Positions 7,012-62,171 of a stretch of DNA of 64,000 bases are shown piece after piece. The position numbers and the translations under genes are program-made. The first letter of the stretch is position 1; each line of letters opens with the position of its first letter. Below the pieces are notes generated by a model. The model did not search any database. It saw nothing but the letters and a program-made list of their open reading frames with translations, and was not told the origin of the DNA. Source of the stretch: Escherichia coli (GTDB lineage: Bacteria; Pseudomonadota; Gammaproteobacteria; Enterobacterales; Enterobacteriaceae); NCBI RefSeq assembly GCF_030013595.1, contig NZ_CP122768.1. One strand, written 5' to 3'.

Positions 7012-7175
7012 CCTTATACGAACAACACCACCCCGTAGGACGGATAAGGCGTTTACGCTGCATCCGGCAACCTATGCCTGATGCGACGCTGAAGCGTCTT
7101 ATCATGCCTACATAGCACTGCCACGTATGTCGGAAAAGGCGTTTACACCGCATCCGGCATAAAAACACGCGCACT
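7012..7175. repeat. REP (repetitive extragenic palindromic) elements
   Basis: Several copies of the GCCGGATGCGGCGT / CGCCTTATCCGGC-type palindromic unit between fbaB and gatY. Confidence 0.7.
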
Positions 7176-9480: not shown

Positions 9481-9843
9481 ATGACTAACCTGTTTGTTCG
9501 TAGCGGAATTTCTTTTGTCGATCGTAGCGAAGTTTTAACCCATATCGGTAATGAGATGCTCGCCAAAGGTGTGGTTCATGATACCTGGCCACAGGCATTA
9601 ATTGCCAGAGAAGCAGAATTCCCTACCGGGATAATGCTTGAGCAGCACGCCATTGCAATACCGCATTGTGAGGCGATTCATGCTAAGTCGTCAGCCATTT
9701 ATCTGTTAAGGCCAACAAATAAAGTTCATTTTCAGCAAGCGGATGATGATAACGACGTGGAGGTATCGTTGGTTATTGCGTTGATTGTGGAAAATCCGCA
9801 GCAGCAATTGAAACTTTTACGCTGTTTATTTGACAAGTTATAA
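9481..9843 (+). CDS. gatA: PTS galactitol-specific EIIA component, truncated by a premature TAA
   Basis: 120-aa ORF ending at TAA 9841-9843; the same frame continues for 29 codons to a TAA at 9931-9933, giving a 150-residue product of typical EIIA size. Confidence 0.75.
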   Translation: MTNLFVRSGISFVDRSEVLTHIGNEMLAKGVVHDTWPQALIAREAEFPTGIMLEQHAIAIPHCEAIHAKSSAIYLLRPTNKVHFQQADDDNDVEVSLVIALIVENPQQQLKLLRCLFDKL

Positions 9844-9963
9844 CAGCCCGATATCGTCGAGACACTAATCACTCTTCCTGAAACCCAGTTAAAGGAATAC
9901 TTCACAAAGTATGTTTTAGATTCAGACGAATAAATCCCTCTGTAACAATAAAAAGGACTATTT

Positions 9964-12800: not shown

Positions 12801-13574
12801 ATGAATTCATTCGAGCGAAGGAATAAGATCATCCAATTAGTGAATGAACAGGGAACCATGCTTGTTCAGGATCTGGCGGGAGTATTTGCTGCCTCGGAAG
12901 CGACAATCCGTGCCGATTTGCGCTTTCTCGAACAAAAAGGCGTGGTTACGCGCTTTCATGGCGGTGCGGCGAAAATAATGTCCGGTAATAGTGAAACCGA
13001 GACCCAGGAAGTCGGGTTTAAAGAGCGATTTCAGCTCGCCAGCGCGCCGAAAAACAGAATAGCGCAGGCGGCAGTCAAAATGATCCATGAAGGGATGACC
13101 GTTATTCTCGACAGCGGAAGTACCACAATGCTTATCGCCGAAGGATTAATGACCGCCAAAAATATCACGGTGATTACCAACAGTCTCCCGGCTGCGTTTG
13201 CCCTTTCCGAAAATAAAGACATTACTCTGGTCGTCTGCGGTGGCACGGTCCGCCATAAAACGCGATCTATGCATGGATCTATTGCTGAACGTTCCCTGCA
13301 GGATATTAATGCCGATTTAATGTTTGTCGGTGCTGATGGTATTGATGCGGTTAATGGTATTACGACCTTTAATGAGGGTTATTCCGTTAGCGGTGCGATG
13401 GTCACAGCCGCTAATAAAGTGATTGCCGTTCTCGATTCATCGAAATTTAACCGTCGCGGTTTTAATCAGGTACTGCCAATCGAAAAAATTGACATTATTA
13501 TTACCGATGATGCTGTGTCTGAGGTGGATAAACTGGCATTGCAGAAGACACGGGTGAAATTAATTACGGTGTAG
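12801..13574 (+). CDS. gatR: DeoR-family repressor of the galactitol operon (intact)
   Basis: ORF from 12795; MNSFERRNKIIQLVNEQGTMLVQDLA... is a DeoR-type HTH N-terminus; uninterrupted reading frame of about 257 aa. Confidence 0.85.
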   Translation: MNSFERRNKIIQLVNEQGTMLVQDLAGVFAASEATIRADLRFLEQKGVVTRFHGGAAKIMSGNSETETQEVGFKERFQLASAPKNRIAQAAVKMIHEGMTVILDSGSTTMLIAEGLMTAKNITVITNSLPAAFALSENKDITLVVCGGTVRHKTRSMHGSIAERSLQDINADLMFVGADGIDAVNGITTFNEGYSVSGAMVTAANKVIAVLDSSKFNRRGFNQVLPIEKIDIIITDDAVSEVDKLALQKTRVKLITV

Positions 13575-14555: not shown

Positions 14556-14960
14556 GATCGTATGTGCCTTTATGATTGGTCTGTAGATAGTGTAGAGCAG
14601 AAAAGAAAAGGTGGAGTCAGAACAGGATGAAAGTCGGAGGATAAAAAGTCAGTTCAAGTATGGAGGATTCAGTGGTTACCACCAGGAGCTTGCAATGGGA
14701 ACAGCGAATATTAACGGTAACCACCGATAAATTTCAAAAAAGAGCATATGCCTAATATTCAACTAAACAGTGGCATCTTCAATATAATATATTAAAGCCC
14801 CCATGGAGTTACCCTGAAGGGCCTCAATGTCCGTAATTCCTACTTATGTAGGAAATGTTGTACAGAACATTTATTATAATCCTATTCAATTATAATGATC
14901 ATGCCATTATTATATTTAAACACTAGAGAGTGTCGTTGGTATTTAATGGGGGAAGGTGAG

Positions 14961-15278
14961 ATGAAAAAGATAGCTGCTATATCATTAACTAGTATTTTTC
15001 TTATATCTGGTTGTGCTGTGCATAATGATGAGACAAGTATCGGTAAATTTGGTCTTGCATATAAAAGTAATATTCAGCGTAAACTCGATAACCAATACTA
15101 CACCGAAGCCGAAGCTTCTTTAGCCAGGGGTAGAATATCTGGTGCAGAAAATATAGTAAAAAATGATGCAACTCATTTCTGTGTTACTCAGGGCAAAAAA
15201 ATGCAAATAGTTGAGCTGAAGACAGAAGGTGTAGGATTACATGGTGTCGCTCGTCTGACATTCAAATGTGGAGAGTGA
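14961..15278 (+). CDS. yegR: small putative lipoprotein
   Basis: ATG at 14961 preceded by GGAAGGTGAG; product MKKIAAISLTSIFLISGC... carries a lipobox (LISGC); the ORF-track start at 14895 has no SD. Confidence 0.8.
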   Translation: MKKIAAISLTSIFLISGCAVHNDETSIGKFGLAYKSNIQRKLDNQYYTEAEASLARGRISGAENIVKNDATHFCVTQGKKMQIVELKTEGVGLHGVARLTFKCGE

Positions 15279-15427
15279 GAATATTTTTTGGTAAGCGTCA
15301 AATATGCGCGTTCTGGCTGTGCGTAGCCGGAACCTGTGGGAGCACGATGCCGATAAGTGAAAGGCATCGTGCTATGAAGGAGGATTCTATCGATGTGGTC
15401 AATGGAAGACGGTTACCAGAGATAGGG

Positions 15428-15514
15428 CTTATGCATAAAAAAATAAGCCCGTGTAAGGGAGATTACACAGGCTAAGGAGGTGGTTCCTGGTACAGCTAGC
15501 ATTTTATGGGTTAT
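15428..15514 (-). ncRNA. cyaR: Hfq-dependent small RNA CyaR (RyeE)
   Basis: Minus-strand sequence GCTGAAAAACATAACCCATAAAATGCTAGCTGTACCAGGAACCACCTCCTTAGCCTGTGTAATCTCCCTTACACGGGCTTATTTTTT matches CyaR as I recall it, including the terminator hairpin and U tract. Confidence 0.8.
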
Positions 15515-15608
15515 GTTTTTCAGCGAAACGGATGATAACCTTAATAAATGCAGCTGTATGTGATCGGTTTCTAAGAATTTTCCATCCGGGAAAAATAATC
15601 GAAATTAA

Positions 15609-17072: not shown

Positions 17073-17369
17073 TTAGCTCCAGTGTAAATGTCTGGTGGCG
17101 TCCTGGTTTTGGTTAAGGATACGAATGACGATAATTTCCCCTGGTGATTGCAGGAAATAAATGACGTGGCGTTCAAAAGGAAGAACAAAAATACCTTCGC
17201 CTAATTCAGGTCTGGGCGTACCTATATTATTGTTACTCAGAATCTGGAGAACGTCTGAAAGATGTTCCACATATCTGTCGGCTTGTGGTTCGCCGAAATG
17301 GTGATAGCTGTAATACCAGATGCCTTCTAAATCCTCATTGGCTTTTGGCATGAGTTTAATAATACGCAC
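17073..17369 (-). CDS. ParE/RelE-superfamily type II toxin
   Basis: 98-aa ORF; pattern ...ANEDLEGIWYY...PRPELGEGIFVLPFERHVIYF...IIVIRILNQNQD fits ParE-family toxins; start is 1 nt after the upstream antitoxin stop. Confidence 0.7.
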   Translation of the reverse strand: MRIIKLMPKANEDLEGIWYYSYHHFGEPQADRYVEHLSDVLQILSNNNIGTPRPELGEGIFVLPFERHVIYFLQSPGEIIVIRILNQNQDATRHLHWS

Positions 17370-17370
17370 A

Positions 17371-17622
17371 TTATTTCCTTATCCCTGCTTTCACCTTCCG
17401 TAAGAACGCGTCCTTTTCCCACGGCTGAGCTTCACCACTACTCAACCCTTCTGCGAGCATGTCACGTAACGCTTGCAGGCGAGACTCTGCTTGCTTTTCT
17501 CGAAGTAATCGCAGTGACTCACGGATCACTTCGCTTTGGGTGCGATAGTCGCCGGATTCAATTAAGGACTCGATAAATTCACGCAACTCATCGCCGAGAT
17601 CAACCGTCATCGTTCTGGCCAT
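17371..17622 (-). CDS. ParD-family (ribbon-helix-helix, COG3609-like) antitoxin
   Basis: 83 aa from the internal ATG at 17622 (MARTMTVDLGDELREFIESLIESGDYRTQSEVIRESLRLL...); ORF track begins at 17667 but that start lacks an SD. Confidence 0.7.
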   Translation of the reverse strand: MARTMTVDLGDELREFIESLIESGDYRTQSEVIRESLRLLREKQAESRLQALRDMLAEGLSSGEAQPWEKDAFLRKVKAGIRK

Positions 17623-17875
17623 TTTACGCCCGCCTGTAAGTAAAAATCTTACATCAGTGTATGTCATAAACCGGATAGCGTCACGAAAGTATTAGAAGAT
17701 ATTTTGGCACATGAACATGTTCAGGAGGATAAGTATGGGATGGTAAACAAAGAAAGCACAACGAGTGCTCGTCAGTGCCCACTATTTTAATGGCGGCGGT
17801 TACTCTTAATTATTAATAACTAAGCGTTATTTGGATATAAAGCCGGACGCCAACAACCCACGCCCGGCATCGTAA

Positions 17876-29599: not shown

Positions 29600-29740
29600 G
29601 CGGGACGCTGAAACGGGAAAGCCCCTCCCGAGGAAGGGGCCATAAATAAGGAAAGGGTCATGATGAAGCTACTCATCATCGTGGTGCTCTTAGTCATAAG
29701 CTTCCCCGCTTACTAAGACTACCAGGGCGGGGGAAACCCC
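29600..29740 (-). ncRNA. sibB: Sib-type antisense sRNA (antitoxin of ibsB); approximate bounds
   Basis: Established arrangement: Sib RNAs are transcribed antisense across ibs ORFs. A minus-strand hairpin plus T-rich tract lies near 29600-29640. Bounds not verifiable here. Confidence 0.35.
29660..29716 (+). CDS. ibsB: type I toxin, small hydrophobic peptide
   Basis: 18-codon ORF encoding MMKLLIIVVLLVISFPAY preceded by AAGGAAAGGG; matches the Ibs toxin family. Confidence 0.7.
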   Translation: MMKLLIIVVLLVISFPAY

Positions 29741-29929
29741 GCTCTACCCTCACTCCTGAAAGTATGCCTTCACGATAAGATTGTCAATCCGCAGGCTTTG
29801 TAGTCTGCGATCCTGCCAGCAAATATTCTTTGCGAGTCGTTACGCAATAATCACAGAGGAAACTATTTTATTCACGCGTTAGCGATAGACTGCATTCAGG
29901 GCGAAAGGAGGTAAGCCGATGATTTCAGC

Positions 29930-30070
29930 GGGACGCTGAAACGGGAAAGCCTCTCCCGGAGAAGAGGGCTTTTAATAAGGAAAGGGTTATGATGAAGCAC
30001 GTCATCATACTGGTGATACTCTTAGTGATTAGCTTCCAGGCTTACTAAGAACACCAGGGGGAGGGGGAAA
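29930..30070 (-). ncRNA. sibA: Sib-type antisense sRNA (antitoxin of ibsA); approximate bounds
   Basis: Second copy of the repeat unit; inferred by analogy with the first copy. Confidence 0.35.
29989..30048 (+). CDS. ibsA: type I toxin, small hydrophobic peptide
   Basis: 19-codon ORF encoding MMKHVIILVILLVISFQAY preceded by AAGGAAAGGG. Confidence 0.7.
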   Translation: MMKHVIILVILLVISFQAY

Positions 30071-30268
30071 CCTCTCCCTAACCCTCACTCCTGAAATTAT
30101 GTCACTCCGCCCTTAGTGTCAATCGACGGCTCTCCGTTCTTGCGAGGCGAATAGCAAAATTTTCTGCGCCGCCGGGCCTAATTCTGAAAGTTTCTTCGTT
30201 TGCTCTTATTTCATTATTGCAGTCGGTATGATACCGGACCTCGATAATTCTCTAAGAAAGGATTTCTT

Positions 30269-32411: not shown

Positions 32412-34358
32412 ATGAAAACAAATATAAAAGTATTTACATCGACAGGTGAATTGACCACTCTTGGCCGTGAACTGGGCAAAGGTGGTGAAGGCGCGGTTTA
32501 TGATATCGAGGAGTTTGTCGATAGCGTCGCCAAGATTTATCACACGCCGCCACCCGCCTTAAAACAGGACAAACTTGCCTTTATGGCTGCGACAGCTGAC
32601 GCGCAGTTGTTGAATTATGTCGCCTGGCCGCAGGCAACGCTTCACGGTGGACGAGGCGGAAAAGTTATCGGTTTTATGATGCCAAAAGTTTCTGGTAAAG
32701 AACCGATTCATATGATCTATAGCCCGGCACATCGTCGCCAGAGTTACCCTCATTGTGCGTGGGATTTTCTACTCTATGTTGCGCGCAATATTGCTTCATC
32801 TTTTGCTACGGTTCACGAGCACGGGCACGTCGTGGGTGACGTAAACCAGAACAGTTTTATGGTAGGTCGCGACAGCAAAGTGGTACTGATTGATAGCGAC
32901 TCCTTTCAGATTAACGCCAATGGCACACTGCATTTATGCGAAGTCGGCGTGTCGCATTTTACGCCGCCAGAGCTACAAACCTTGTCGTCATTTGTCGGCT
33001 TTGAACGCACAGAAAATCACGATAATTTTGGCCTTGCGTTGCTGATTTTTCACGTCTTGTTTGGTGGCCGGCATCCTTATTCTGGTGTGCCGCTTATCTC
33101 TGATGCGGGTAATGCGCTGGAGACGGATATTACCCATTTCCGTTATGCCTACGCGTCAGATAATCAGCGACGTGGTTTAAAACCGCCGCCACGATCGATT
33201 CCGCTATCGATGTTACCGAGTGATGTTGAAGCCATGTTTCAGCAGGCATTCACGGAAAGTGGCGTGGCAACCGGGCGTCCGACGGCTAAAGCGTGGGTAG
33301 CGGCACTTGATTCTCTGCGCCAACAGTTAAAGAAATGTCCCGTTTCGGCAATGCATGTTTATCCCGCTCATTTGACCGACTGCCCGTGGTGTGCGCTGGA
33401 TAATCAAGGCGTTATCTATTTTATTGATCTCGGCGAAGAGGTCATTACCACCAGCGGTGATTTTGTGCTGGCGAAAGTCTGGGCGATGGTGATGGCGTCA
33501 GTAGCACCGCCAGCATTGCAATTGCCATTACCCGATCATTTCCAACCGACTGGCAGGCCGCTTCCTTTAGGCCTGTTACGGCGCGAATACATCATTCTGA
33601 TTGAGATCGCACTGTCAGCGTTATCGCTGTTGCTTTGCGGCCTTCAGGCAGAACCGCGTTATATTATTTTGGTTCCTGTGCTGTCGGCTATCTGGATTAT
33701 TGGCAGTCTGACAAGCAAAGCGTACAAAGCAGAAGTTCAGCAACGCCGTGAGGCATTTAATCGCGCGAAAATGGACTATGACCATTTATTCAGCCAGATC
33801 CAACAGTTGGGCGGGCTGGAAGGTTTTATCGCCAAACGGACGATGCTCGAAAAAATGAAGGACGAAATGCTCGGGTTACCGGAAGAAGAAAAACGTGCTC
33901 TGGCAGCACTTCACGACACCGCAAGGGAACGGCAGAAGCAGAAGTTTCTGGAGGGATTTTTTATTGATGTTGCCTCTATTCCCGGCGTTGGCCCTGCGCG
34001 TAAAGCGGCGTTACGGTCCTTTGGTATTGAAACAGCAGCGGATGTTACCCGTCGTGGGGTTAAGCAAGTGAAAGGGTTTGGTGATCATCTGACCCAGGCA
34101 GTTATCGACTGGAAAGCAAGTTGCGAACGCCGTTTTGTGTTCAGGCCGAATGAAGCGGTAACGCCAGCAGACAGACAAGCGGTAATGGCGAAAATGACCG
34201 CCAAACGACATCGGCTGGAATCGACGTTGACTGTCGGCGCGACAGAGTTGCAGCGATTCCGCCTTCATGCTCCAGCACGGACCATGCCGTTGATGGAACC
34301 GTTACGTCAGGCGGCAGAAAAACTGGCTCAGGCGCAGGCAGATTTAAGCCGCTGCTGA
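32412..34358 (+). CDS. yegI: membrane-anchored atypical Ser/Thr protein kinase with C-terminal helix-hairpin-helix
   Basis: 648-aa ORF; kinase-like motifs (GKGGEGAVY, VAKIY, HGHVVGDVNQNS, DSDSF), two hydrophobic helices near residues 395-440, and an HhH (IPGVGPARKAALRSFGIETAADV). Confidence 0.85.
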   Translation: MKTNIKVFTSTGELTTLGRELGKGGEGAVYDIEEFVDSVAKIYHTPPPALKQDKLAFMAATADAQLLNYVAWPQATLHGGRGGKVIGFMMPKVSGKEPIHMIYSPAHRRQSYPHCAWDFLLYVARNIASSFATVHEHGHVVGDVNQNSFMVGRDSKVVLIDSDSFQINANGTLHLCEVGVSHFTPPELQTLSSFVGFERTENHDNFGLALLIFHVLFGGRHPYSGVPLISDAGNALETDITHFRYAYASDNQRRGLKPPPRSIPLSMLPSDVEAMFQQAFTESGVATGRPTAKAWVAALDSLRQQLKKCPVSAMHVYPAHLTDCPWCALDNQGVIYFIDLGEEVITTSGDFVLAKVWAMVMASVAPPALQLPLPDHFQPTGRPLPLGLLRREYIILIEIALSALSLLLCGLQAEPRYIILVPVLSAIWIIGSLTSKAYKAEVQQRREAFNRAKMDYDHLFSQIQQLGGLEGFIAKRTMLEKMKDEMLGLPEEEKRALAALHDTARERQKQKFLEGFFIDVASIPGVGPARKAALRSFGIETAADVTRRGVKQVKGFGDHLTQAVIDWKASCERRFVFRPNEAVTPADRQAVMAKMTAKRHRLESTLTVGATELQRFRLHAPARTMPLMEPLRQAAEKLAQAQADLSRC

Positions 34359-36822: not shown

Positions 36823-39800
36823 TCAGTTAATCGCGAAATAACTACTATTCACCAGCAAATCCAGCGGTTGGGCATCGGCAATCACATCACCATAAATCAG
36901 ATCGACGCCGATGCCCGAAAGCGTATCCATCACTAAGGGTAAAACGACTGGCCCGGCTATAGTCTTCACCCCGAGTCGCTGAGCGTGCCCCAGAATAATC
37001 GTAATCAGCATCTCATCCATCAAATTACCCTGCACGTTGGCGCATAAATCCCCATCAAGTAGCAGGTAATCTGCCATATTCGCTTTCAGCGAGTTGAAGA
37101 TTTGCAGATCGCGGCCCACCTGGCTGAGCACTATCCGACATCCCGCCAGCCGCAGTTTTTGCACGCTTTCTGCGTGATCTAAAATCGCTTCTGCCGGAAT
37201 AACCAGATGTAATAACCGTGGTGGTAGAGGGCTATTTTCCATCTGCTCAAGCAGGTCATTCACCAGCGTGGCGCTACTCAAACCGGCAACGGAAAGGGGG
37301 AGGGCGATGCTTATGCCTTTACTGGCAACCGCTTTGGCAGCCTGCTGGAAAAATTCGTGGAATACCCGTCGGTCAAGAGCATGGCTAAGTGCCGGATCGC
37401 TGCAGCTACGACGAAATGTTTGTTCATCAATAATCTCGCCTTCGCAACTCCACAGCTTAAGTGAAATCAGCCACAAATTACGCGCTTCCGGGATCCGTGG
37501 CGAAGCGACACCGTGGGCGATCATCATCAACTGATTCTCTTTAATCATCCGCCACTGTTCATCAAGCGACATCGCCGCCTGTTCGCTATGTGCGGCAGCT
37601 TGCTGCGGTTCGTAAATCGTCACCCGGCCCCGGCCACCATTTTTGGAGGCATAACAGGCGATATCAGCCTGCGACATCACTTCAGCCGCCTGATGATTGT
37701 TGTCATCAATCAAGGTAATCCCGGCACTGGCACCTACCCGATGTACACGTCCTTCCCAGATAAAGTGATAGTCATTCACAGCACTGATAATACGTGTAGC
37801 GATAAAACGCGCACTTTCGACATTGCAGTCTGGCAGCAGCAGACCAAATTCATCACCGCCGAGCCGCGCCAGCACGTCGCTGGAGCGCAGCATGCTCAGC
37901 ATCAACGACGCCAGTTCGCGCAGTAAAGCGTCGCCCGCCGCATGCCCGGCGCTGTCATTCACCGCTTTAAAGCGATCAAGATCGATAAACACCAGGGCAT
38001 GTCGCTGATGCGTACTGTTTACCGTTTGCAGCAGGATGCGTAGTTGCTTCTCAAAACTGGCGCGATTGGCGAGATGCGTCAGTGCATCATGGGAGGCGCT
38101 GTAGCTCAGCTGGCGCAGCATTTTGCGTGATTCGGTGACGTCCTGAATCACCAGAACCGAACCAATATTGCTGCCGTCCAGAGTACTTAACGGCGTAATA
38201 CTGTAATGCACGTCGTAGCTGCCGCCGCTCCGGCAGTGCAACACCACATCTTGTTCAATCGCGGAACGTGAGGTGTCGGCACTGTAAATGTTTTCCATTA
38301 ATGGTCCGTTGTCGCCAAAAGTAATATGCAACACCGTCAGGAGCGGAACACCTAATGCTTCTTCCTGCGTCCAGCCGCTCATCTTCTCCGCCACTGGATT
38401 CATAAAGGTAATTTTCATTGCCATATCAATACAGACCACGGCTTCGCCGATGGAGTCCAGCGTAATGTGCAGGCGCTCTTTTTCCTGAAACAATGCCTCG
38501 TTAAGCTGTTTAACCTCGGTCATATCCATATTAATGCCGAGCAGGCGTTCGACTTCGCCTTCTTTATTCAGTACCCGGTTGGCGAGGGCGCGGATATGGC
38601 GGATGCCATCTTTCACGGCAATGCGAAATTCCAGCTTAAAGGGCGAGCGTGATTGCAACGAATCACGAATCACTTTTTCGGCATGCTGGCGATCTTCCGG
38701 CAGCACGCACTCGTACCACACCTGCCAGTTCGGTTTGATATGCGGAGGAATTTCATACAGCTCGAACATCCGCTTATCCCAGCTAAAAATATTCGGCTTC
38801 AGCTCCCACTCCCAGATGCCAATCCCGCCCGCTTCGTTAGCCAGCGTGATGCGTTCCATCAGTTGCTGATTCACCTGTTCGGTGCGTTTTAGCTCGTTAA
38901 TGTCTTCAATCTGAGCGATAAAATAGAGCGGCGTGCCATCCGTGTGGCGCACCAGTGAGACGGCAAGCAACGCCCAGACAACATCGCCATTGCGGTTGTA
39001 GTAACGTTTTTCCATTGAATAGGTGTTTATTTCACCGCTTATCAGCTTTTCAACCTGTTGGAGATCTTTATTGAGATCCTCCGGCCAGGTCAGTTGCTGA
39101 AAGGTGAGTCCGCGCAGCTCTTCCTGACTGTAACCGAGAAACTGGCAGAGTGCTTTGTTGGATTGCAGCCATTGTCCCTCGGTGCCCACTAATGCCATGC
39201 CGATGGCGGAATATTCCATGGCGTTCCGAAAGCGGGTTTCGCTTTCGGAAATGTGTTTGCGTTCCGCACGAAAGGCATACATCACCATGGTCATGATGTT
39301 GGCGGGCAGCAGGATCAGCAAAAACGGTAGCCACGGCATATGGCTCGTCAGGTACGTACGCGGCGTAGCAAGCAGGGAGGGATCCGCGGCCATCATCAGC
39401 GACACCATCATTACCGTGGTAAGGAAGATCAAAAAGGCTTCCATTCGTGGCAGGCGCACGGCGCTCCACATCAACAGCACAATAATGAAAGTAAAAGGCC
39501 ACGGCAGATACAGCATCGAAAGCCAGCTTAACGTCAGTGTGATGGCTAACGTGAGCAGCGACTCAAAAAGCAACCGTGGGTTGCGATGGCGCAGCAGATA
39601 GTGTGGTTTAAATAACAATCCCAGCGGCACCAGTGCCAGAGCGCCGATGGATTCTGACAGTACCCATATCAAAAATGCCCTGAGAGGATCGTCTCCGGGC
39701 GTCAGCAGGACAACCAGAACACCCCCCAACAGAGGTGGAACAATGGCGCTGCCGAGTGCCAGACGCAGCCAGTCAGCCAGATTTTGCAAGGGGTTATACC

Positions 39801-40140
39801 ACGGCAGCAATTTACGTAGCAGCACTGCCCCGACCACGGCTTCAACAATATTGATGGTCGTCCAGGTCATGTTCAGCGAGCTGGTGGAAAAAAGCAGGAT
39901 GGATGCGGCGATATTTCCCAGCGAACAGCTCAGCGCAATTCCCGGCCACATGCGCCCGGCATGGCGATAAAACGCCACCATCATGATGGACGTCGGGAAC
40001 CACAGTGGGGCGAGTTGGGTGCCAAACTGCGAAAGCTCAAGCGAGAAAAGGGTAAAGATAAACGAGACTAAACCTAAACTGACCAGGTGAAGCAGCGGGT
40101 GGGGCAGGGCAATTAATACATGCTGTGATTGTTTGCTCAT
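36823..40140 (-). CDS. dgcE: multidomain diguanylate cyclase (MASE1-PAS-GGDEF with degenerate EAL)
   Basis: 1105-aa ORF with an N-terminal polytopic region, PAS repeats, an intact GGDEF motif (LARLGGDEFGLLL) and a C-terminal EAL-like region lacking the EAL motif. Confidence 0.9.
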   Translation of the reverse strand: MSKQSQHVLIALPHPLLHLVSLGLVSFIFTLFSLELSQFGTQLAPLWFPTSIMMVAFYRHAGRMWPGIALSCSLGNIAASILLFSTSSLNMTWTTINIVEAVVGAVLLRKLLPWYNPLQNLADWLRLALGSAIVPPLLGGVLVVLLTPGDDPLRAFLIWVLSESIGALALVPLGLLFKPHYLLRHRNPRLLFESLLTLAITLTLSWLSMLYLPWPFTFIIVLLMWSAVRLPRMEAFLIFLTTVMMVSLMMAADPSLLATPRTYLTSHMPWLPFLLILLPANIMTMVMYAFRAERKHISESETRFRNAMEYSAIGMALVGTEGQWLQSNKALCQFLGYSQEELRGLTFQQLTWPEDLNKDLQQVEKLISGEINTYSMEKRYYNRNGDVVWALLAVSLVRHTDGTPLYFIAQIEDINELKRTEQVNQQLMERITLANEAGGIGIWEWELKPNIFSWDKRMFELYEIPPHIKPNWQVWYECVLPEDRQHAEKVIRDSLQSRSPFKLEFRIAVKDGIRHIRALANRVLNKEGEVERLLGINMDMTEVKQLNEALFQEKERLHITLDSIGEAVVCIDMAMKITFMNPVAEKMSGWTQEEALGVPLLTVLHITFGDNGPLMENIYSADTSRSAIEQDVVLHCRSGGSYDVHYSITPLSTLDGSNIGSVLVIQDVTESRKMLRQLSYSASHDALTHLANRASFEKQLRILLQTVNSTHQRHALVFIDLDRFKAVNDSAGHAAGDALLRELASLMLSMLRSSDVLARLGGDEFGLLLPDCNVESARFIATRIISAVNDYHFIWEGRVHRVGASAGITLIDDNNHQAAEVMSQADIACYASKNGGRGRVTIYEPQQAAAHSEQAAMSLDEQWRMIKENQLMMIAHGVASPRIPEARNLWLISLKLWSCEGEIIDEQTFRRSCSDPALSHALDRRVFHEFFQQAAKAVASKGISIALPLSVAGLSSATLVNDLLEQMENSPLPPRLLHLVIPAEAILDHAESVQKLRLAGCRIVLSQVGRDLQIFNSLKANMADYLLLDGDLCANVQGNLMDEMLITIILGHAQRLGVKTIAGPVVLPLVMDTLSGIGVDLIYGDVIADAQPLDLLVNSSYFAIN

Positions 40141-45523: not shown

Positions 45524-45991
45524 AGTAAGTACAAAACCTATTCGTTGTATGACAAATGTCACAATTCGATCATGGATAAATCGGGGCAAAAATGCAATGT
45601 TGCAGCACTATTTATCTCATATTATTTGAGGGTAATAACCTCACATTATCCCTGAATTAAAAGTGGTAATAATAAAACATTATTTAAGAAATATCGCATG
45701 TGGAGGCGCAATATTAAATATTGTCAACCTAAAGAAACTCCTAAAAACCATATTGAATGACACTTAATATAATTCTTAAAAATAGCCAATTGCCGAATTG
45801 TTACCTTGCCTGCTATTCCGTTAGCTGTAACACTTCCTCCTGCATTATTGGAGAGCCAATATTCAATTACCATAATGTCACCTTATATTCGGAAGTTAAT
45901 TTCCGCAATAACCCTTTCTCATCAACGATTGTATGCTGAGAGGGTGTGAAAAATTAAGCTAAATCAGTGTATTGGTAGCTAAAAAGCCAGG

Positions 45992-46003
45992 GGCGGTAGC
46001 GTG
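45992..46003 (+). promoter_or_regulatory. ops element (RfaH-dependent antitermination signal, within JUMPstart)
   Basis: Exact GGCGGTAGCGTG about 180 nt upstream of the wza start. Confidence 0.65.
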
Positions 46004-46181: not shown

Positions 46182-47321
46182 ATGATGAAATCCAAAATGA
46201 AATTGATGCCATTATTGGTGTCAGTAACCTTGATAAGCGGTTGCACAGTACTTCCGGGCAGCAATATGTCGACGATGGGCAAAGACGTCATCAAACAGCA
46301 GGACGCTGATTTCGATCTCGACAAAATGGTGAATGTTTATCCGTTGACCCCGCGCCTGATTGACCAATTACGTCCACGACCCAACGTAGCGCGCCCCAAT
46401 ATGACGCTGGAAAGCGAGATCGCGAATTACCAGTATCGCGTCGGGCCGGGCGACGTTCTGAATGTCACCGTCTGGGATCACCCGGAACTCACCACGCCAG
46501 CCGGTCAGTACCGCAGCTCCAGTGACACCGGCAACTGGGTACAGCCTGACGGCACTATGTTTTACCCGTATATCGGCAAGGTTCACGTAGTCGGGAAAAC
46601 GCTCGCTGAAATCCGCAGTGATATTACCGGGCGCTTAGCGACGTACATCGCTGACCCGCAGGTGGACGTTAATATCGCCGCCTTCCGCTCACAAAAGGCC
46701 TATATCTCCGGACAGGTGAATAAATCCGGTCAACAGGCGATCACCAACGTACCACTGACCATTCTCGACGCCATCAACGCCGCAGGTGGCCTGACCGACA
46801 CCGCTGACTGGCGCAACGTGGTGCTAACACACAATGGTCGTGAAGAACGCATTTCTTTGCAGGCGCTGATGCAAAACGGCGACCTCAATCAGAACCGACT
46901 GCTTTATCCCGGCGATATTCTCTACGTGCCGCGTAATGATGATCTGAAAGTGTTTGTGATGGGTGAAGTGAAGAAACAGAGCACCCTGAAAATGGACTTT
47001 AGCGGCATGACCCTGACTGAAGCCCTGGGCAATGCCGAAGGTATCGACATGACCACCTCCAACGCCAGCGGCATCTTTGTCATTCGTCCGCTGAAAGGCG
47101 AGGGCGGGCGTAATGGCAAGATTGCCAATATCTACCAGCTGGATATGTCCGATGCGACGTCGCTGGTGATGGCGACAGAATTCCGCCTGCAACCTTATGA
47201 CGTGGTGTATGTCACCACCGCCCCGGTTTCCCGCTGGAACCGTCTGATCAATCAGTTGCTGCCAACTATTAGCGGTGTCCGTTACATGACGGATACAGCC
47301 AGCGACATTCATAACTGGTAA
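46182..47321 (+). CDS. wza: outer-membrane polysaccharide export lipoprotein (colanic acid)
   Basis: 379-aa ORF with a lipobox (LISGC); recognised as Wza. Confidence 0.92.
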
Positions 47322-47326
47322 TCGTC

Positions 47327-47770
47327 ATGTTTAACAACATATTAGTTGTCTGTGTCGGCAATATTTGCCGTTCCCCGACGGCGGAACGCTTACTGCAACG
47401 TTATCACCCGGAGCTGAAAGTGGAGTCCGCTGGACTCGGCGCGCTGGTCGGTAAGGGCGCTGATCCTACCGCTATCAGCGTCGCCGCAGAACATCAACTG
47501 TCTCTGGAAGGTCACTGTGCCCGTCAAATCAGCCGCCGTCTGTGTCGCAACTACGACCTGATTTTGACCATGGAAAAGCGCCATATCGAACGCTTATGCG
47601 AGATGGCACCCGAGATGCGCGGCAAAGTGATGCTGTTTGGTCACTGGGATAACGAATGTGAAATCCCCGATCCGTATCGCAAAAGCCGGGAAACGTTTGC
47701 AGCGGTGTACACATTACTTGAACGGTCTGCCCGCCAGTGGGCGCAGGCATTGAACGCAGAGCAGGTATAA
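47327..47770 (+). CDS. wzb: low-molecular-weight protein-tyrosine phosphatase
   Basis: 147-aa ORF with the CVGNICRS active-site loop. Confidence 0.92.
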   Translation: MFNNILVVCVGNICRSPTAERLLQRYHPELKVESAGLGALVGKGADPTAISVAAEHQLSLEGHCARQISRRLCRNYDLILTMEKRHIERLCEMAPEMRGKVMLFGHWDNECEIPDPYRKSRETFAAVYTLLERSARQWAQALNAEQV

Positions 47771-47772
47771 GA

Positions 47773-49935
47773 ATGACAGAAAAAGTAAAACAACATGCCG
47801 CTCCGGTAACGGGCAGTGATGAAATCGATATTGGTCGCCTGGTCGGTACAGTCATTGAAGCGCGCTGGTGGGTGATTGGCATCACCGCCGTATTTGCCCT
47901 CTGTGCTGTGGTTTACACCTTCTTCGCCACGCCGATTTATAGTGCCGACGCACTGGTACAAATCGAGCAAAACAGCGGCAATTCGTTAGTGCAGGACATT
48001 GGTTCGGCATTAGCCAATAAACCGCCAGCATCGGACGCCGAGATCCAGTTGATTCGTTCGCGTCTGGTGCTTGGTAAAACGGTGGACGATCTCGACCTCG
48101 ATATTGCGGTGAGCAAAAACACGTTCCCGATTTTCGGTGCGGGTTGGGATCGCCTGATGGGACGTCAGAACGAGACGGTGAAAGTGACCACCTTTAACCG
48201 CCCGAAAGAGATGGCGGACCAGGTGTTTACGCTTAATGTGCTGGATGACAAAAACTACACCCTGAGCAGCGACGGCGGCTTTAGCGCCCGGGGGCAAGCG
48301 GGCCAGATGCTGAAAAAAGAAGGCGTCACGCTGATGGTTGAAGCCATTCACGCCAGCCCGGGCAGTGAGTTTACCGTCACCAAATACTCCACGCTGGGGA
48401 TGATCAACCAACTGCAAAACAGCCTGACGGTAACGGAGAACGGCAAAGACGCTGGCGTTTTGAGCCTGACTTATACCGGTGAAGATCGTGAACAGATCCG
48501 CGACATTCTTAACAGCATCGCCCGTAACTATCAGGAACAAAATATTGAGCGCAAATCGGCGGAAGCGTCGAAAAGCCTCGCCTTCCTCGCGCAACAGTTA
48601 CCGGAAGTACGTAGCCGCTTGGATGTTGCCGAAAACAAACTGAATGCCTTCCGTCAGGATAAAGATTCTGTTGATCTGCCGCTGGAAGCGAAAGCGGTGC
48701 TCGATTCGATGGTGAACATCGACGCCCAGTTGAACGAACTGACCTTTAAAGAGGCGGAAATCTCCAAGCTGTACACCAAAGTTCACCCGGCGTACCGCAC
48801 GCTGCTGGAGAAACGTCAGGCGCTGGAAGACGAAAAAGCCAAACTTAACGGTCGCGTAACGGCGATGCCGAAAACCCAGCAGGAGATTGTCCGTCTGACC
48901 CGCGATGTCGAGTCTGGTCAGCAGGTCTATATGCAACTGCTGAATAAAGAGCAGGAGCTGAAAATCACCGAAGCCAGCACCGTCGGCGATGTGCGCATTG
49001 TTGACCCGGCAATCACTCAGCCTGGTGTGCTAAAACCGAAGAAAGGGCTGATTATCCTTGGGGCGATTATTCTTGGCCTGATGCTCTCTATCGTGGGTGT
49101 GCTGCTGCGCTCGTTGTTTAATCGCGGCATCGAAAGCCCGCAGGTGCTGGAAGAACACGGTATCAGCGTCTATGCCAGCATCCCGTTGTCGGAATGGCAG
49201 AAAGCGCGCGATAGCGTCAAAACCATCAAAGGGATTAAACGCTATAAACAGAGCCAGCTACTGGCGGTGGGGAATCCAACCGATCTGGCGATTGAAGCCA
49301 TCCGCAGTCTGCGTACCAGTCTGCACTTCGCGATGATGCAGGCGCAGAACAATGTGTTGATGATGACCGGGGTTAGCCCGTCAATCGGTAAAACCTTTGT
49401 CTGCGCCAACCTGGCGGCGGTGATCAGCCAGACCAATAAACGCGTGTTGTTGATCGACTGCGATATGCGCAAAGGCTACACCCACGAGCTGTTGGGCACC
49501 AATAACGTCAATGGCCTGTCGGAAATTCTGATTGGTCAGGGCGATATTACTACCGCAGCTAAACCGACCTCTATTGCCAAATTTGACCTGATCCCGCGCG
49601 GTCAGGTGCCGCCAAATCCTTCTGAACTGTTGATGAGCGAACGCTTTGCCGAACTGGTGAACTGGGCGAGTAAAAACTATGACCTGGTGTTGATTGATAC
49701 GCCGCCGATTCTGGCAGTGACCGATGCGGCAATTGTTGGTCGTCACGCTGGAACCACGTTAATGGTGGCGCGTTATGCGGTCAACACCTTGAAAGAAGTG
49801 GAAACCAGTCTGAGCCGCTTTGAGCAAAACGGTATTCCGGTGAAAGGGGTGATTCTGAACTCCATCTTCCGCCGCGCCAGCGCGTATCAGGATTATGGCT
49901 ATTACGAATACGAATATAAGTCGGACGCGAAATAA
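47773..49935 (+). CDS. wzc: tyrosine autokinase / polysaccharide co-polymerase
   Basis: 720 aa from the ATG at 47773 (MTEKVKQHAAPVTGSDEIDIG...); Walker A (SPSIGKT) and a C-terminal Tyr-rich tail (YQDYGYYEYEYKSD). Confidence 0.92.
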   Translation: MTEKVKQHAAPVTGSDEIDIGRLVGTVIEARWWVIGITAVFALCAVVYTFFATPIYSADALVQIEQNSGNSLVQDIGSALANKPPASDAEIQLIRSRLVLGKTVDDLDLDIAVSKNTFPIFGAGWDRLMGRQNETVKVTTFNRPKEMADQVFTLNVLDDKNYTLSSDGGFSARGQAGQMLKKEGVTLMVEAIHASPGSEFTVTKYSTLGMINQLQNSLTVTENGKDAGVLSLTYTGEDREQIRDILNSIARNYQEQNIERKSAEASKSLAFLAQQLPEVRSRLDVAENKLNAFRQDKDSVDLPLEAKAVLDSMVNIDAQLNELTFKEAEISKLYTKVHPAYRTLLEKRQALEDEKAKLNGRVTAMPKTQQEIVRLTRDVESGQQVYMQLLNKEQELKITEASTVGDVRIVDPAITQPGVLKPKKGLIILGAIILGLMLSIVGVLLRSLFNRGIESPQVLEEHGISVYASIPLSEWQKARDSVKTIKGIKRYKQSQLLAVGNPTDLAIEAIRSLRTSLHFAMMQAQNNVLMMTGVSPSIGKTFVCANLAAVISQTNKRVLLIDCDMRKGYTHELLGTNNVNGLSEILIGQGDITTAAKPTSIAKFDLIPRGQVPPNPSELLMSERFAELVNWASKNYDLVLIDTPPILAVTDAAIVGRHAGTTLMVARYAVNTLKEVETSLSRFEQNGIPVKGVILNSIFRRASAYQDYGYYEYEYKSDAK

Positions 49936-49944
49936 CGAGATCCG

Positions 49945-50005
49945 CTGTCGGATGCGATGCTGACGCATCTTATCCGACTTACGCTCACGCCGCATCCGGC
50001 AACAG
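49945..50005. repeat. REP element
   Basis: Palindromic CGGATGCG...GCATCTTATCCGAC...CGCATCCGGCA units after wzc. Confidence 0.6.
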
Positions 50006-50063
50006 AACCCGTAAACAAGCTTATAAACCGGCAGAACATCTCGACACTCCGGGAGAACAACCT

Positions 50064-50903
50064 ATGAAAGACAATCCGCTGATCTCAATCTATATGCCGA
50101 CCTGGAACCGCCAACAACTGGCGATTCGGGCAATAAAATCGGTTTTGCGCCAGGACTACAGCAACTGGGAGATGATCATCGTGGATGATTGCTCCACCTC
50201 CTGGGAACAACTGCAACAGTACGTCACTGCCCTCAACGATCCGCGTATTACCTACATTCACAACGACATTAACAGCGGGGCGTGCGCGGTACGTAACCAG
50301 GCGATTATGCTGGCGCAAGGGGAATACATCACCGGGATCGATGATGATGATGAATGGACACCCAACCGTCTGAGCGTCTTCCTCGCCCATAAACAGCAAC
50401 TGGTCACTCACGCCTTTTTGTACGCTAACGACTACGTTTGCCAGGGCGAAGTCTATTCCCAACCAGCAAGTTTGCCGCTATATCCCAAATCGCCGTATTC
50501 ACGCCGCCTGTTCTACAAACGCAATATCATTGGCAACCAGGTCTTTACCTGGGCATGGCGTTTCAAAGAGTGTTTGTTCGATACCGAACTGAAAGCGGCA
50601 CAGGATTACGACATCTTCCTGCGGATGGTGGTGGAGTACGGCGAACCGTGGAAAGTAGAAGAGGCGACGCAGATCCTGCATATCAATCACGGTGAAATGC
50701 AGATCACCTCGTCACCGAAAAAATTCTCCGGATACTTCCACTTTTACCGCAAGCACAAAGACAAATTCGACCGTGCCAGTAAAAAATATCAGCTGTTTAC
50801 CCTCTACCAGATCCGCAATAAACGTATGACCTGGCGCACTTTGCTGACGCTGCTGTCGGTGCGTAACGGCAAACGTCTGGCTGATGGTATTCGGGGGCGC
50901 TAA
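50064..50903 (+). CDS. wcaA: colanic acid biosynthesis glycosyltransferase (GT2)
   Basis: 279-aa ORF with GT2 motifs (ISIYMPTWN, DDCS); first in the conserved wca gene order. Confidence 0.9.
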   Translation: MKDNPLISIYMPTWNRQQLAIRAIKSVLRQDYSNWEMIIVDDCSTSWEQLQQYVTALNDPRITYIHNDINSGACAVRNQAIMLAQGEYITGIDDDDEWTPNRLSVFLAHKQQLVTHAFLYANDYVCQGEVYSQPASLPLYPKSPYSRRLFYKRNIIGNQVFTWAWRFKECLFDTELKAAQDYDIFLRMVVEYGEPWKVEEATQILHINHGEMQITSSPKKFSGYFHFYRKHKDKFDRASKKYQLFTLYQIRNKRMTWRTLLTLLSVRNGKRLADGIRGR

Positions 50904-50905
50904 AG

Positions 50906-51394
50906 ATGCTGGAAGATCTACGCGCCAACAGCTGGAGTTTACGCCCGTGCTGCATGGTTCTTGCCTATCGCGTCGCTCATTTTTGTTCGGTGTGGCGCAA
51001 AAAGAACGTTCTCAACAATCTGTGGGCGGCCCCGCTGCTGGTGCTGTATCGCATTATCACCGAATGCTTTTTCGGTTATGAAATCCAGGCTGCCGCGACC
51101 ATTGGCCGCCGCTTTACTATCCATCACGGTTACGCCGTAGTGATCAATAAAAACGTGGTAGCGGGGGATGATTTCACCATTCGCCACGGCGTCACTATCG
51201 GCAATCGGGGGGCCGATAACATGGCATGTCCACACATTGGCAACGGCGTCGAACTCGGTGCCAACGTCATTATTCTTGGTGATATCACGCTTGGTAACAA
51301 CGTCACCGTGGGCGCGGGCAGCGTGGTGCTCGACTCTGTCCCGGACAACGCGCTGGTGGTGGGAGAAAAAGCGCGAGTGAAGGTAATTAAATGA
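50906..51394 (+). CDS. wcaB: colanic acid biosynthesis acetyltransferase (hexapeptide repeat)
   Basis: 162-aa ORF with left-handed beta-helix repeats. Confidence 0.9.
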   Translation: MLEDLRANSWSLRPCCMVLAYRVAHFCSVWRKKNVLNNLWAAPLLVLYRIITECFFGYEIQAAATIGRRFTIHHGYAVVINKNVVAGDDFTIRHGVTIGNRGADNMACPHIGNGVELGANVIILGDITLGNNVTVGAGSVVLDSVPDNALVVGEKARVKVIK

Positions 51395-52608
51395 ATATTT
51401 TGCAATTTAATGTGCGACTGGCGGAAGGCGGGGCAGCAGGTGTGGCGTTAGATCTCCACCAGCGTGCGCTGCAACAGGGGCTGGCGTCACATTTTGTCTA
51501 CGGTTACGGCAAAGGCGGCAAAGAGAGCGTCAGCCATCAGAACTATCCGCAGGTCATCAAACATACGCCGCGGATGACCGCGATGGCGAATATTGCTCTG
51601 TTTCGTCTGTTTAATCGCGATCTGTTTGGCAATTTCAATGAGTTATATCGCACCATTACTCGCACAGCGGGTCCGGTGGTCCTGCATTTTCATGTGCTGC
51701 ACAGCTACTGGCTAAATCTTAAGAGCGTGGTGCGCTTTTGCGAAAAAGTGAAAAACCATAAACCGGACGTCACTCTGGTCTGGACGCTGCACGACCACTG
51801 GAGTGTTACCGGACGCTGCGCCTTTACCGACGGTTGCGAAGGCTGGAAAACAGGCTGCCAGAAATGCCCGACCTTAAATAACTATCCGCCGGTGAAGATT
51901 GATCGCGCACACCAACTGGTGGCGGGCAAACGCCAGTTATTCCGTGAGATGCTGGCGCTGGGCTGTCAGTTTATTTCCCCCAGCCAGCATGTGGCTGACG
52001 CTTTCAATAGCCTGTACGGTCCAGGGCGTTGCCGGATTATCAATAATGGCATTGATATGGCAACTGAAGCGATTCTGGCGGACTTGCCTCCGGTGCGCGA
52101 AACCCAGGGCAAGCCGAAAATCGCGGTGGTGGCGCATGATCTGCGTTACGACGGCAAAACTAACCAGCAACTGGTACGCGAGATGATGGCGCTGGGCGAC
52201 AAAATTGAACTGCATACCTTTGGTAAGTTCTCGCCGTTCACCGCTGGCAACGTGGTTAATCACGGCTTTGAAACCGACAAACGTAAGCTGATGAGCGCGC
52301 TCAATCAGATGGATGCGCTGGTATTCAGTTCTCGCGTCGATAACTACCCGCTGATTTTGTGTGAGGCGCTATCGATTGGCGTGCCGGTGATTGCCACCCA
52401 TAGCGATGCGGCGCGGGAAGTGTTGCAAAAATCCGGCGGTAAAACCGTCAGCGAAGAAGAGGTGCTGCAACTGGTGCAGTTAAGCAAACCGGAAATCGCG
52501 CAGGCGATATTTGGTACCACGCTGGCTGAGTTCAGCCAACGCAGCCGTGCCGCTTACAGTGGACAACAGATGCTGGAGGAGTATGTCAACTTCTATCAGA
52601 ATCTGTAG
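51391..52608 (+). CDS. wcaC: colanic acid biosynthesis glycosyltransferase (GT4)
   Basis: 405-aa ORF; 4-nt overlap with wcaB. Confidence 0.9.
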   Translation: MNILQFNVRLAEGGAAGVALDLHQRALQQGLASHFVYGYGKGGKESVSHQNYPQVIKHTPRMTAMANIALFRLFNRDLFGNFNELYRTITRTAGPVVLHFHVLHSYWLNLKSVVRFCEKVKNHKPDVTLVWTLHDHWSVTGRCAFTDGCEGWKTGCQKCPTLNNYPPVKIDRAHQLVAGKRQLFREMLALGCQFISPSQHVADAFNSLYGPGRCRIINNGIDMATEAILADLPPVRETQGKPKIAVVAHDLRYDGKTNQQLVREMMALGDKIELHTFGKFSPFTAGNVVNHGFETDKRKLMSALNQMDALVFSSRVDNYPLILCEALSIGVPVIATHSDAAREVLQKSGGKTVSEEEVLQLVQLSKPEIAQAIFGTTLAEFSQRSRAAYSGQQMLEEYVNFYQNL

Positions 52609-53800
52609 CTACCTGCTGCTGCCGCTGATCTACCTGCTGGTTAACGTCAAAATCGCCCAGCTTGGTGAAAGTTTCCCCATCACCATCGTAACTTTTTTAC
52701 CTGTTTTGTTACTGCTGTTTTTAGAACGCATCAGCGTTAAAAAATTGATGATTGCCTTAGGGATTGGCGCGGGACTCACGGCGTTTAACTATCTGTTTGG
52801 TCAGTCGCTGGATGCCAGTAAATACGTCACTTCAACTATGCTGTTTGTCTATATCGTGATCATTATTGGTATGGTGTGGAGTATTCGCTTTAAAACGATT
52901 TCGCCACACAACCATCGCAAGATATTACGTTTCTTTTATCTGGTGGTCGGGCTGGTGGTGGCGCTGGCGGCGGTGGAGATGGCGCAAATTATCCTCACCG
53001 GCGGCAGCAGTATTATGGAGTCGATTTCGAAATATCTGATTTACAGCAACAGCTATGTGCTGAATTTCATCAAATTCGGCGGCAAGCGCACGACAGCACT
53101 TTATTTCGAACCGGCATTTTTCGCTCTGGCATTAATCTCAATTTGGCTCAGCATCAAACAGTTTGGTATCAAAACGCCTAAAACAGATGCTATGATTCTC
53201 GCAGGGATAATATTATCCGGATCGTTTTCAGGGGTTATGACCTTTATCCTGTTTTATTTGCTGGAGTGGGCATTTCAATATCTGAATAAAGAGGCGATTA
53301 AGAAAAAGTTACCGTTAGCATTGATTTCTCTGGCTGTATTCCTGGTTGGTGTGGTAATTGCATTTCCTTATATTTCCACCCGTCTGGGCGATTTAGGTAC
53401 GGAAGGATCGTCATCGTATTATCGTATTGTCGGTCCGCTGGTGATGGTCGGTTATTCTTTGACCCATATTGACGGTGTAGTCAGATTTGGCTCACTTTAT
53501 GAATATGTCGCATCATTCGGAATATTTAACGGTGCGGATGTCGGAAAAACCATAGACAATGGTTTGTATCTGCTGATTATTTATTTTTCCTGGTTCGCAG
53601 TGTTTTTATCGCTGTGGTACATGGGGAAAGTGATAAAAATGATGATCAACGCTTTTGGTGATAACCGCAATTTTCGCGTGCAATTATATCTTTTTACTCC
53701 GGTGTCGCTGTTTTTTACCGGTTCGATATTTAGCCCGGAATATGCATTTTTAATCGTCTGTCCGTTTATTTTGCGAAAAGCGTTAAATATTACGAGGTAA
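52583..53800 (+). CDS. wcaD: putative colanic acid polymerase (Wzy-like)
   Basis: 405 aa from the ATG at 52583 ([21 protein letters not shown]), polytopic; overlaps the wcaC 3' end by 26 nt; the ORF track extends to 52511. Confidence 0.82.
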
Positions 53801-53810
53801 GAATAAGAAC

Positions 53811-54557
53811 ATGTTGCTTAGCATAATCACTGTCGCGTTTCGTAACCTCGAAGGGATAGTCAAAACACATGCCTCGCTGGCGCATCTGGCGCTGGCGGAA
53901 GATATCAGCTTCGAATGGATTGTTGTCGATGGCGGTTCCAATGACGGCACCCGTGAGTATCTGGAAAATCTCAATAGTATCTATAACCTACGCTTTGTCA
54001 GCGAGCCAGATAACGGTATCTACGACGCCATGAACAAGGGCATTGCGATGGCACAAGGCAAGTTCGCGTTGTTTCTCAATTCGGGCGATATTTTTCATCA
54101 GGATGCCGCAAATTTTGTCCGTAAGTTAAAAGTGCAAAAAGATAACGTGATGATCACCGGCGATGCGCTGCTGGATTTTGGCGACGGGCATAAAATTAAA
54201 CGTAGCGCCAAACCGGGTTGGTATATTTATCACAGCCTGCCCGCCAGCCATCAGGCGATATTTTTCCCGGTATCCGGCTTGAAAAAATGGCGTTATGACC
54301 TGGAATATAAAGTTTCTTCCGATTACGCGCTGGCAGCCAAAATGTATAAAGCCGGTTATGCATTTAAAAAACTCAATGGCCTGGTGTCTGAATTTTCCAT
54401 GGGTGGGGTATCAACAACCAATAATATGGAATTGTGTGCTGACGCCAAAAAAGTCCAACGGCAAATATTACATGTGCCTGGCTTCTGGGCAGAATTATCC
54501 TGGCATTTACGCCAACGTACTACCTCAAAGACGAAAGCCTTATATAACAAAAGCTGA
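53811..54557 (+). CDS. wcaE: colanic acid biosynthesis glycosyltransferase (GT2)
   Basis: 248-aa ORF recognised as WcaE. Confidence 0.9.
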
Positions 54558-54572
54558 ATATAAGGGAAAACG

Positions 54573-55121
54573 ATGCAAGATTTAAGTGGGTTCTCGGTGC
54601 CGAAAGGGTTCCGGGGCGGCAACGCTATTAAAGTGCAATTGTGGTGGGCAGTACAGGCAACATTATTTGCCTGGTCGCCACAAGTATTGTATCGCTGGCG
54701 GGCATTTTTATTACGTTTATTCGGGGCGAAAATAGGAAAAAACGTAGTTATTCGTCCGTCAGTAAAAATTACCTATCCGTGGAAATTAACCTTAGGTGAT
54801 TACGCGTGGGTCGGCGATGAGGTCAATTTATATACCCTCGGTGAAATAACCATTGGCGCACATTCGGTGATATCGCAAAAAAGTTATTTATGCACCGGGA
54901 GCCACGACCATGCAAGTCAACATTTCACCATTAACGCCACGCCTATTGTGATTGGCGAGAAATGTTGGCTGGCAACCGATGTCTTTGTTGCCCCAGGCGT
55001 CACAATCGGCGACGGCACCGTCGTGGGGGCGCGAAGCAGTGTTTTTAAATCGCTTCCGGCAAATGTGGTTTGCCGGGGGAATCCCGCAGTGGTGATACGC
55101 GAACGCGTTGAAACTGAATAA
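54573..55121 (+). CDS. wcaF: colanic acid biosynthesis acetyltransferase (hexapeptide repeat)
   Basis: 182-aa ORF recognised as WcaF. Confidence 0.9.
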   Translation: MQDLSGFSVPKGFRGGNAIKVQLWWAVQATLFAWSPQVLYRWRAFLLRLFGAKIGKNVVIRPSVKITYPWKLTLGDYAWVGDEVNLYTLGEITIGAHSVISQKSYLCTGSHDHASQHFTINATPIVIGEKCWLATDVFVAPGVTIGDGTVVGARSSVFKSLPANVVCRGNPAVVIRERVETE

Positions 55122-55147
55122 ATTCAAAAAATACAGAGGAATAAGAC

Positions 55148-56269: not shown

Positions 56270-56271
56270 GC

Positions 56272-58939: not shown

Positions 58940-58941
58940 TT

Positions 58942-60378: not shown

Positions 60379-60380
60379 AC

Positions 60381-60656
<276 letters not shown>

Positions 60657-60746
60657 AATGAATGCGAAACCGCGGTGTAAATAATGACAAAAACAAAATT
60701 GGCCGTTTCGGTCAGGGCCAACTATTGCCTGAAAAAGGGTAACGAC

Positions 60747-62117: not shown

Positions 62118-62171
62118 TGTCGGATCTTCCCTTACCCCACTGCGGGTAAGGGGCTAATAACAGGAACAACG

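Follow-up and report, generated by a model that had tools for sequence, protein, structure and literature searches.

The window analysed here, a stretch of 64,000 nucleotides of Escherichia coli DNA, contains the galactitol operon in the order gatYZABCD-gatR, flanked by fbaB and yegS. The coordinates of the genes and of the features within them are collected in Table 1. Translated comparison (tblastn) with the proteins of E. coli strain YJ4 covered 34 genes in positions 1-45,600, and gatA alone among these carries an in-frame stop. The repressor gene gatR is unbroken by insertion sequences (IS) here, unlike that of K-12 MG1655, which is disrupted by an IS (PMC5850726).

Table 1. Features of the gat operon in the window (positions are those of the window).
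Feature	Coordinates	Strand	Basis
gatY, tagatose-bisphosphate aldolase subunit, intact, 284 aa	7326..8180	+	tblastn against YJ4 protein: full length, 98.6% identity, no stops
gatZ, intact, 420 aa	8209..9471	+	full length, 99.8% identity to YJ4 GatZ
gatA, truncated ORF, 120 aa	9481..9843	+	ORF list; ATG at 9481
Codon 118, GAC (Asp), rare G118D	9832..9834	+	9833 is A here, G in YJ4 and L001 (strain 503025)
Premature ochre stop TAA, codon 121, from CAA (Gln) via C to T at 9841	9841..9843	+	sequence and comparison with relatives
Untranslated remnant, gatA codons 122-150 and original TAA (9931-9933)	9844..9933	+	sequence same as intact alleles
gatB ribosome-binding site AAGGA (putative), 6 nt upstream of ATG	9953..9957	+	read from sequence; assignment as binding site presumed
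gatB (EIIB), intact, 94 aa	9964..10248	+	ORF list and tblastn against YJ4
gatC (EIIC), intact, 451 aa	10252..11607	+	ORF list and tblastn against YJ4
gatD, galactitol-1-phosphate 5-dehydrogenase, intact, 346 aa	11655..12695	+	ORF list and tblastn against YJ4
gatR, DeoR-type repressor, intact, 257 aa as annotated in relatives	12801..13574	+	full-length match, 99.2% identity to YJ4 protein

The gatA frame terminates after 120 codons and then stays open for 29 more (QPDIVETLITLPETQLKEYFTKYVLDSDE) before its second TAA, as the first-pass annotation of this DNA had read it and as both the sequence and the list of open reading frames bear out. An open run of 29 codons would arise by chance with a probability of (61/64)^29, about 0.25 by our own arithmetic, and is unremarkable alone. 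It is counted as decisive not for its length but because its residues are identical to the C-terminus of the annotated 150-aa GatA of E. coli. The size of 150 aa given in that annotation agrees with the 453-nt CDS of full-length E. coli GatA in RefSeq. When GatA of YJ4 was used as tblastn query, residues 1-150 were aligned to 9481-9930 with exactly one stop. The spacing within the operon is altered as well: 120 nt lie untranslated between the gatA stop and the gatB ATG, where the usual gatA-gatB spacer in E. coli relatives is 30 nt. This gap had been remarked on as unlike the spacing of under 50 nt elsewhere in the window, and the other gat junctions indeed range from 3 to 47 nt (gatY-gatZ 28 nt, gatZ-gatA 9 nt, gatB-gatC 3 nt, gatC-gatD 47 nt). 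Compared with full-length E. coli GatA, the window gene has the same identity and operon position, its product is 98-99% identical over residues 1-120 and its tail codons are identical; it differs in the rare G118D and in the absence of residues 121-150, which hold helices 123-131 and 134-146. Judged by these comparisons, gatA is here a lineage-specific pseudogene produced by a nonsense mutation, Q121*, and annotation should mark it as an internal-stop pseudogene instead of calling a 120-aa protein.

The segment beyond the stop is a conserved part of the family. Alignment with GatA orthologues, which had been proposed as a check, covered 23 proteins from at least 10 genera (Escherichia, Citrobacter, Klebsiella, Leclercia, Kluyvera, Kosakonia, Buttiauxella, Phytobacter, Scandinavium, Pseudescherichia and Pseudocitrobacter). 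The tail beyond residue 120 is conserved and all 23 are 149-155 aa long; orthologues ending at about residue 120, named beforehand as evidence against a premature stop, number 0 of 23. Residues L120, Q121, L129, L137, F141 and L146, in or bordering the lost segment, are invariant in these orthologues, as are P61, H62, C63 and E64 of the AIPHCE motif, which is kept in the truncated ORF. By UniProt annotation, His62 is the phospho-acceptor of GatA. The Pfam profile PF00359 (PTS_EIIA_2; cutoff 27) gives 67.7 bits for the truncated ORF, over positions 12-117 of its 144, and 79.1 bits for the read-through, over positions 12-136. As a member of the PTS EIIA-2 family, the truncated ORF has the profile match, the histidine motif and the location between gatZ and gatB/gatC, and lacks a complete domain.

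An AlphaFold2 model of full-length GatA, built from the orthologue alignment, has a mean pLDDT of 93.1 and a pTM of 0.89. It places helices at 106-120, 123-131 and 134-146, so that the stop falls right after the first and leaves out both of the others, whereas the truncated ORF still encodes helix 106-120, His62 and all of the beta-sheet. The full-length model superposes on the solved EIIA-2 structures 1XIZ (a putative EIIA from Salmonella), 1A3A and 2FEW (E. coli EIIA-Mtl) and 1A6J (EIIA-Ntr), over 140-156 alignment columns with TM-scores of 0.71-0.90, at just 20-24% sequence identity. All four possess C-terminal helices like those of the model, and these matches indicate that the deleted helices are part of a conserved fold; the window product would lack these last two helices.

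The closest complete genomes over 601 nt differ from the window at two positions only, 9833 and 9841. Across gatZ-gatA the closest complete genome is YJ4, with five differing sites there including these two (haplotype table for gatZ-gatC). In YJ4, position 9833 is G and position 9841 is C, its codon 121 being CAA (Gln), and the protein allele E94/G118/Q121 is very common (37,239 index blocks). Because YJ4 has CAA and this allele is so common, the stop is attributed to a transition in a Gln codon, at its first position; a single C to T change turned codon 121 from CAA into TAA. Lys (AAA) was considered as the ancestral codon and rejected. It is found in strain 503025 (L001), the closest complete genome within gatA alone, but many gatZ sites distinguish that strain from the window, and YJ4 has CAA. 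No difference from YJ4, L001 or L016 is seen in 9844-9933. Since gatR and the remaining gat genes are intact and nothing else has changed in the dead tail, the stop is judged to have arisen recently, and one base change could revert it.

The window allele combines D118 with TAA on the E94 haplotype and is specific to its own clone. G118D, three codons upstream of the stop, is rare, occurring in 7 complete genomes (the ETEC O25 group), and column 118 is Gly or Ser in all 22 other sequences of the orthologue alignment. D118 is also found with an intact 150-aa gatA in L016 (ETEC O25:H16, strain F5505-C1) and L020 (run ERR1937376), on which ground two ideas find no support: that G118D and the stop arose as one multi-nucleotide event, and that G118D represents decay after inactivation. 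L020 encodes the same read-through protein as the window at a DNA identity of just 98.5% and does not qualify as the intact sister lineage of the window allele, which was sought and not found. With the window, the ETEC O25 group and L020, the backgrounds that carry G118D number at least three, so that it is either recurrent or moved by recombination; its base change also converts TTGGCA to TTGACA, a perfect -35-like hexamer.

The stop is genuine and is inherited in one E. coli lineage. At least 24 recorded contigs encode exactly this 120-aa product. Eight loci (L003-L010) from independent samples and different submitters, comprising two NCBI assemblies (GCA_008326365.1 and GCA_021649405.1) and six SRA runs (SRR14865750, ERR4899784, ERR4421132, ERR4421134, ERR14362488 and ERR13758408), have gatA DNA identical to that of the window, including T at 9841, with 99.7-100% identity over 3-12 kb. 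The first-pass annotation had offered a nonsense mutation or a sequencing error as its explanation. The former is upheld as CAA to TAA, while the latter fails against at least eight independent samples that share the DNA. A sequencing or assembly error, with CAA as the real codon 121 and a 150-aa GatA intact, is suggested by the fact that only a single base differs and that, of 5426 complete RefSeq E. coli genomes, none is listed as matching the 61-mer around the stop exactly over its full length; set against the eight loci, and with 9841 not within a homopolymer, such an error is extremely unlikely. The highest 20-kb identity of any of these complete genomes to the window is 99.5%, which together with the missing 61-mer indicates that the lineage is simply not represented in the set. 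One carrier of the stop, L006 (ERR4899784), shows about 22 differences patched near yegR (window 14897-15437), consistent with recombination inside the clade, and this extra patch implies that the stop allele has been passed on for some time. Two other loci, L004 and L007, part from the window sequence after 14037, within yegS.

Three further readings accept the stop and dispute its effect. That the 120-aa GatA still works, the last two helices being dispensable and the strain galactitol-positive, would fit the retention of His62, the beta-sheet and helix 106-120, the Pfam score of 67.7 bits, and the survival of the allele for long enough that one carrier gained a recombination patch. Yet every orthologue has the tail, with L129, L137, F141 and L146 invariant in it, the tail lies within the conserved fold of all the matched EIIA-2 structures, and persistence is equally expected of a neutral loss; we regard a functional short form as unlikely. 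Even less probable, to the point of being barely credible, is a bypass of the stop by programmed read-through, recoding or an ochre suppressor tRNA, by which full-length GatA would still be made. UAA followed by C, as here, is not the strongest termination context, and the downstream frame is perfectly preserved, but this preservation is explained by the recency of the mutation. A stop at the equivalent position occurs in none of the 23 orthologues, no complete genome is listed with the stop allele (61-mer, 5426 genomes), and no tRNA gene is present in the window. The downstream RNA structure is ordinary, with a minimum free energy of -17.2 kcal/mol against -14.5 +/- 2.7 for shuffled sequences (z = -0.99). 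The third reading takes the substitutions at 9833 (G to A, giving the perfect TTGACA) and 9841 (C to T, giving TATAAC) as regulatory changes that jointly give gatBCD an internal promoter. At 9830-9857, TTGACA and TATCGT separated by 16 nt match 10 of 12 promoter positions, and G118D improves the -35 element. However, two promoter-like sites were found where shuffled sequences lead to an expectation of 2.3 +/- 1.2, the TATAAC made by the stop is just 3 nt from TTGACA so that the two cannot serve one promoter together, and D118 is found elsewhere without the stop. A regulatory role for the pair is accordingly given hardly any weight.

The explanation preferred as a whole, with a probability of about 0.88, is a Q121* nonsense mutation with a presumed loss of GatA function, one more natural galactitol-utilisation allele. 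Nobelmann and Lengeler in 1996 reportedly described galactitol uptake and phosphorylation as passing from HPr~P to GatA, GatB and GatC, followed by GatD and GatYZ. A summary of the pathway is given in PMC3945185. On this explanation, C to T at 9841 changed CAA (Gln121) to TAA and translation ends after residue 120, leaving a product that lacks the last two alpha-helices of the PTS EIIA-2 fold and keeps His62. Truncated EIIA(Gat), to judge from how conserved its tail is and from the structure model, is probably unstable or inactive. With gatA inactive, the phosphoryl relay from HPr~P through GatA and GatB to galactitol (through GatC) would be broken, and neither uptake nor fermentation of galactitol would be expected; on the same two lines of evidence the lineage is predicted to be galactitol-negative. 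With 120 nt instead of 30 left untranslated ahead of gatB, expression of gatBCD might also suffer mild polarity. Rho-dependent polarity over this stretch, in which C exceeds G (27 vs 17), is possible, and a scan of the new untranslated stretch found no terminator. A restart that makes a separate C-terminal peptide was also considered and set aside, as no in-frame ATG, GTG or TTG is encountered after the stop up to 9933.

Lesions of gatA and of its neighbours are widespread in natural E. coli. TAA at codon 121 is found on two other, unrelated haplotypes (L011/L012 and L013), with 98.3-99.3% identity to the window. Other natural truncations of GatA end after residues 106, 109 and 115, a frameshift lies near residue 100, and the truncated-GatA sequence cluster has 462 members. 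Truncated forms of 70, 103 and 106 aa occur in more contigs (179, 143 and 94, respectively). Only 66 one-step nonsense mutations are possible in gatA and very many E. coli have been sequenced, so that recurrence of the codon-121 stop is expected; as other truncation points are found in more contigs, codon 121 was rejected as a special hotspot. Strain 203740 has IS1 inserted in gatA, strain 503025 an internal stop in gatZ, and the gatA region has no match at all in 422 of the 5426 complete genomes. These natural lesions resemble the window allele in that the same operon was independently inactivated, and differ from it in position or genetic background.

Position 9841 is tri-allelic in E. coli: C (CAA, Gln) is common, T (TAA) occurs on three haplotypes, and A gives AAA (Lys). 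Lys121, carried by strain 503025 and by allele P0016 (40 contigs), could have arisen either directly or by pseudo-reversion from the stop (TAA to AAA). The stop on at least three haplotypes, with Lys121 as a possible pseudo-revertant, might be taken to suggest that 9841 is a natural on/off toggle for galactitol use, which we consider very unlikely. If true, it would be a counterpart of the 'recurrent reverse evolution' at gat in the mouse gut, and the truncation would be under fluctuating selection rather than simple decay. Part of the count for a second 120-aa protein (P0006) is an artefact, as the contigs L014 and L015 end at codon 121 with C. The ends of these two metagenome-like Logan contigs suggest an assembly-graph branch from mixed C/T or C/A strains.

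Among adaptive or neutral losses in E. coli, inactivation of gat is one of the best documented, from experimental evolution in the gut as well as from natural isolates. Knock-outs affecting gatA, gatC, gatZ or the regulatory region of gatY were found to arise within days in mice treated with streptomycin, with an advantage of about 7% (Barroso-Batista 2014, PMC3945185), and such knock-outs, including those in gatA, gave a gat-negative phenotype and swept in the mouse gut (PMC3945185). The forward rate to the gat-negative state is about 1e-5 per generation, and revertants arise too (Sousa 2017, PMC5850726). Enterobacteria of this phenotype are common in human and mouse faeces and reach a frequency above 90% in some healthy humans (PMC5850726). 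Selection for gat loss was confined to K-12 with gatR disrupted and the operon constitutive, and was gone once gatR had been restored (PMC5850726). The window allele is like the mouse-gut mutants, whose gat loss-of-function lesions, including those in gatA, abolished galactitol use, and the trait is polymorphic in natural enterobacteria of humans and mice (PMC3945185, PMC5850726). It differs in kind and setting, since the mouse-gut lesions are mostly IS insertions and small indels in K-12 with gatR disrupted, whereas a point nonsense mutation is found here in a natural lineage whose gatR is intact. Because selection for loss was not seen when gatR was functional, an adaptive origin has no support here; neutral drift is an equally likely origin of the stop. 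Use of galactitol (dulcitol) is a classical biotyping character, and its effect on how well E. coli fares in the gut is known. No paper on the Q121* allele of gatA turned up in literature searches; this is one more natural allele of a well-known galactitol-utilisation polymorphism, and it raises no new question.

Several other features were observed in the window. Repeats of the naRNA4/REP type are located at 7038-7108 and 60448-60606, and the first of these coincides with the break point of several short-read contigs from carrier strains. The CyaR sRNA lies between yegR and yegQ (15441-15526). Between yegQ and yegP, a RelE/ParE-type toxin and a ParD-type antitoxin (17076-17667) are 100% identical in protein to the pair in YJ4. 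Two copies of the SIB antitoxin RNA (type I ibs/sib toxin-antitoxin) are present at 29645-30122, upstream of mdtA, and YJ4 is annotated with four ibs toxin genes there. The genes yegI (648-aa ORF, 32412-34358) and dgcE (1105-aa ORF, 36823-40140) are intact, and both are annotated as frameshifted pseudogenes in YJ4. Beyond about 45.6 kb the window and YJ4 are not collinear. After yegH, many plus-strand ORFs follow one another in the window (46182-63566), preceded by a JUMPstart element at 45965-46003 and read as a putative colanic-acid-type polysaccharide cluster; past yegH, YJ4 (compared as L019) instead carries galF, an integrase fragment and a cluster whose annotation includes Wzi, polysaccharide export and WbaP genes.
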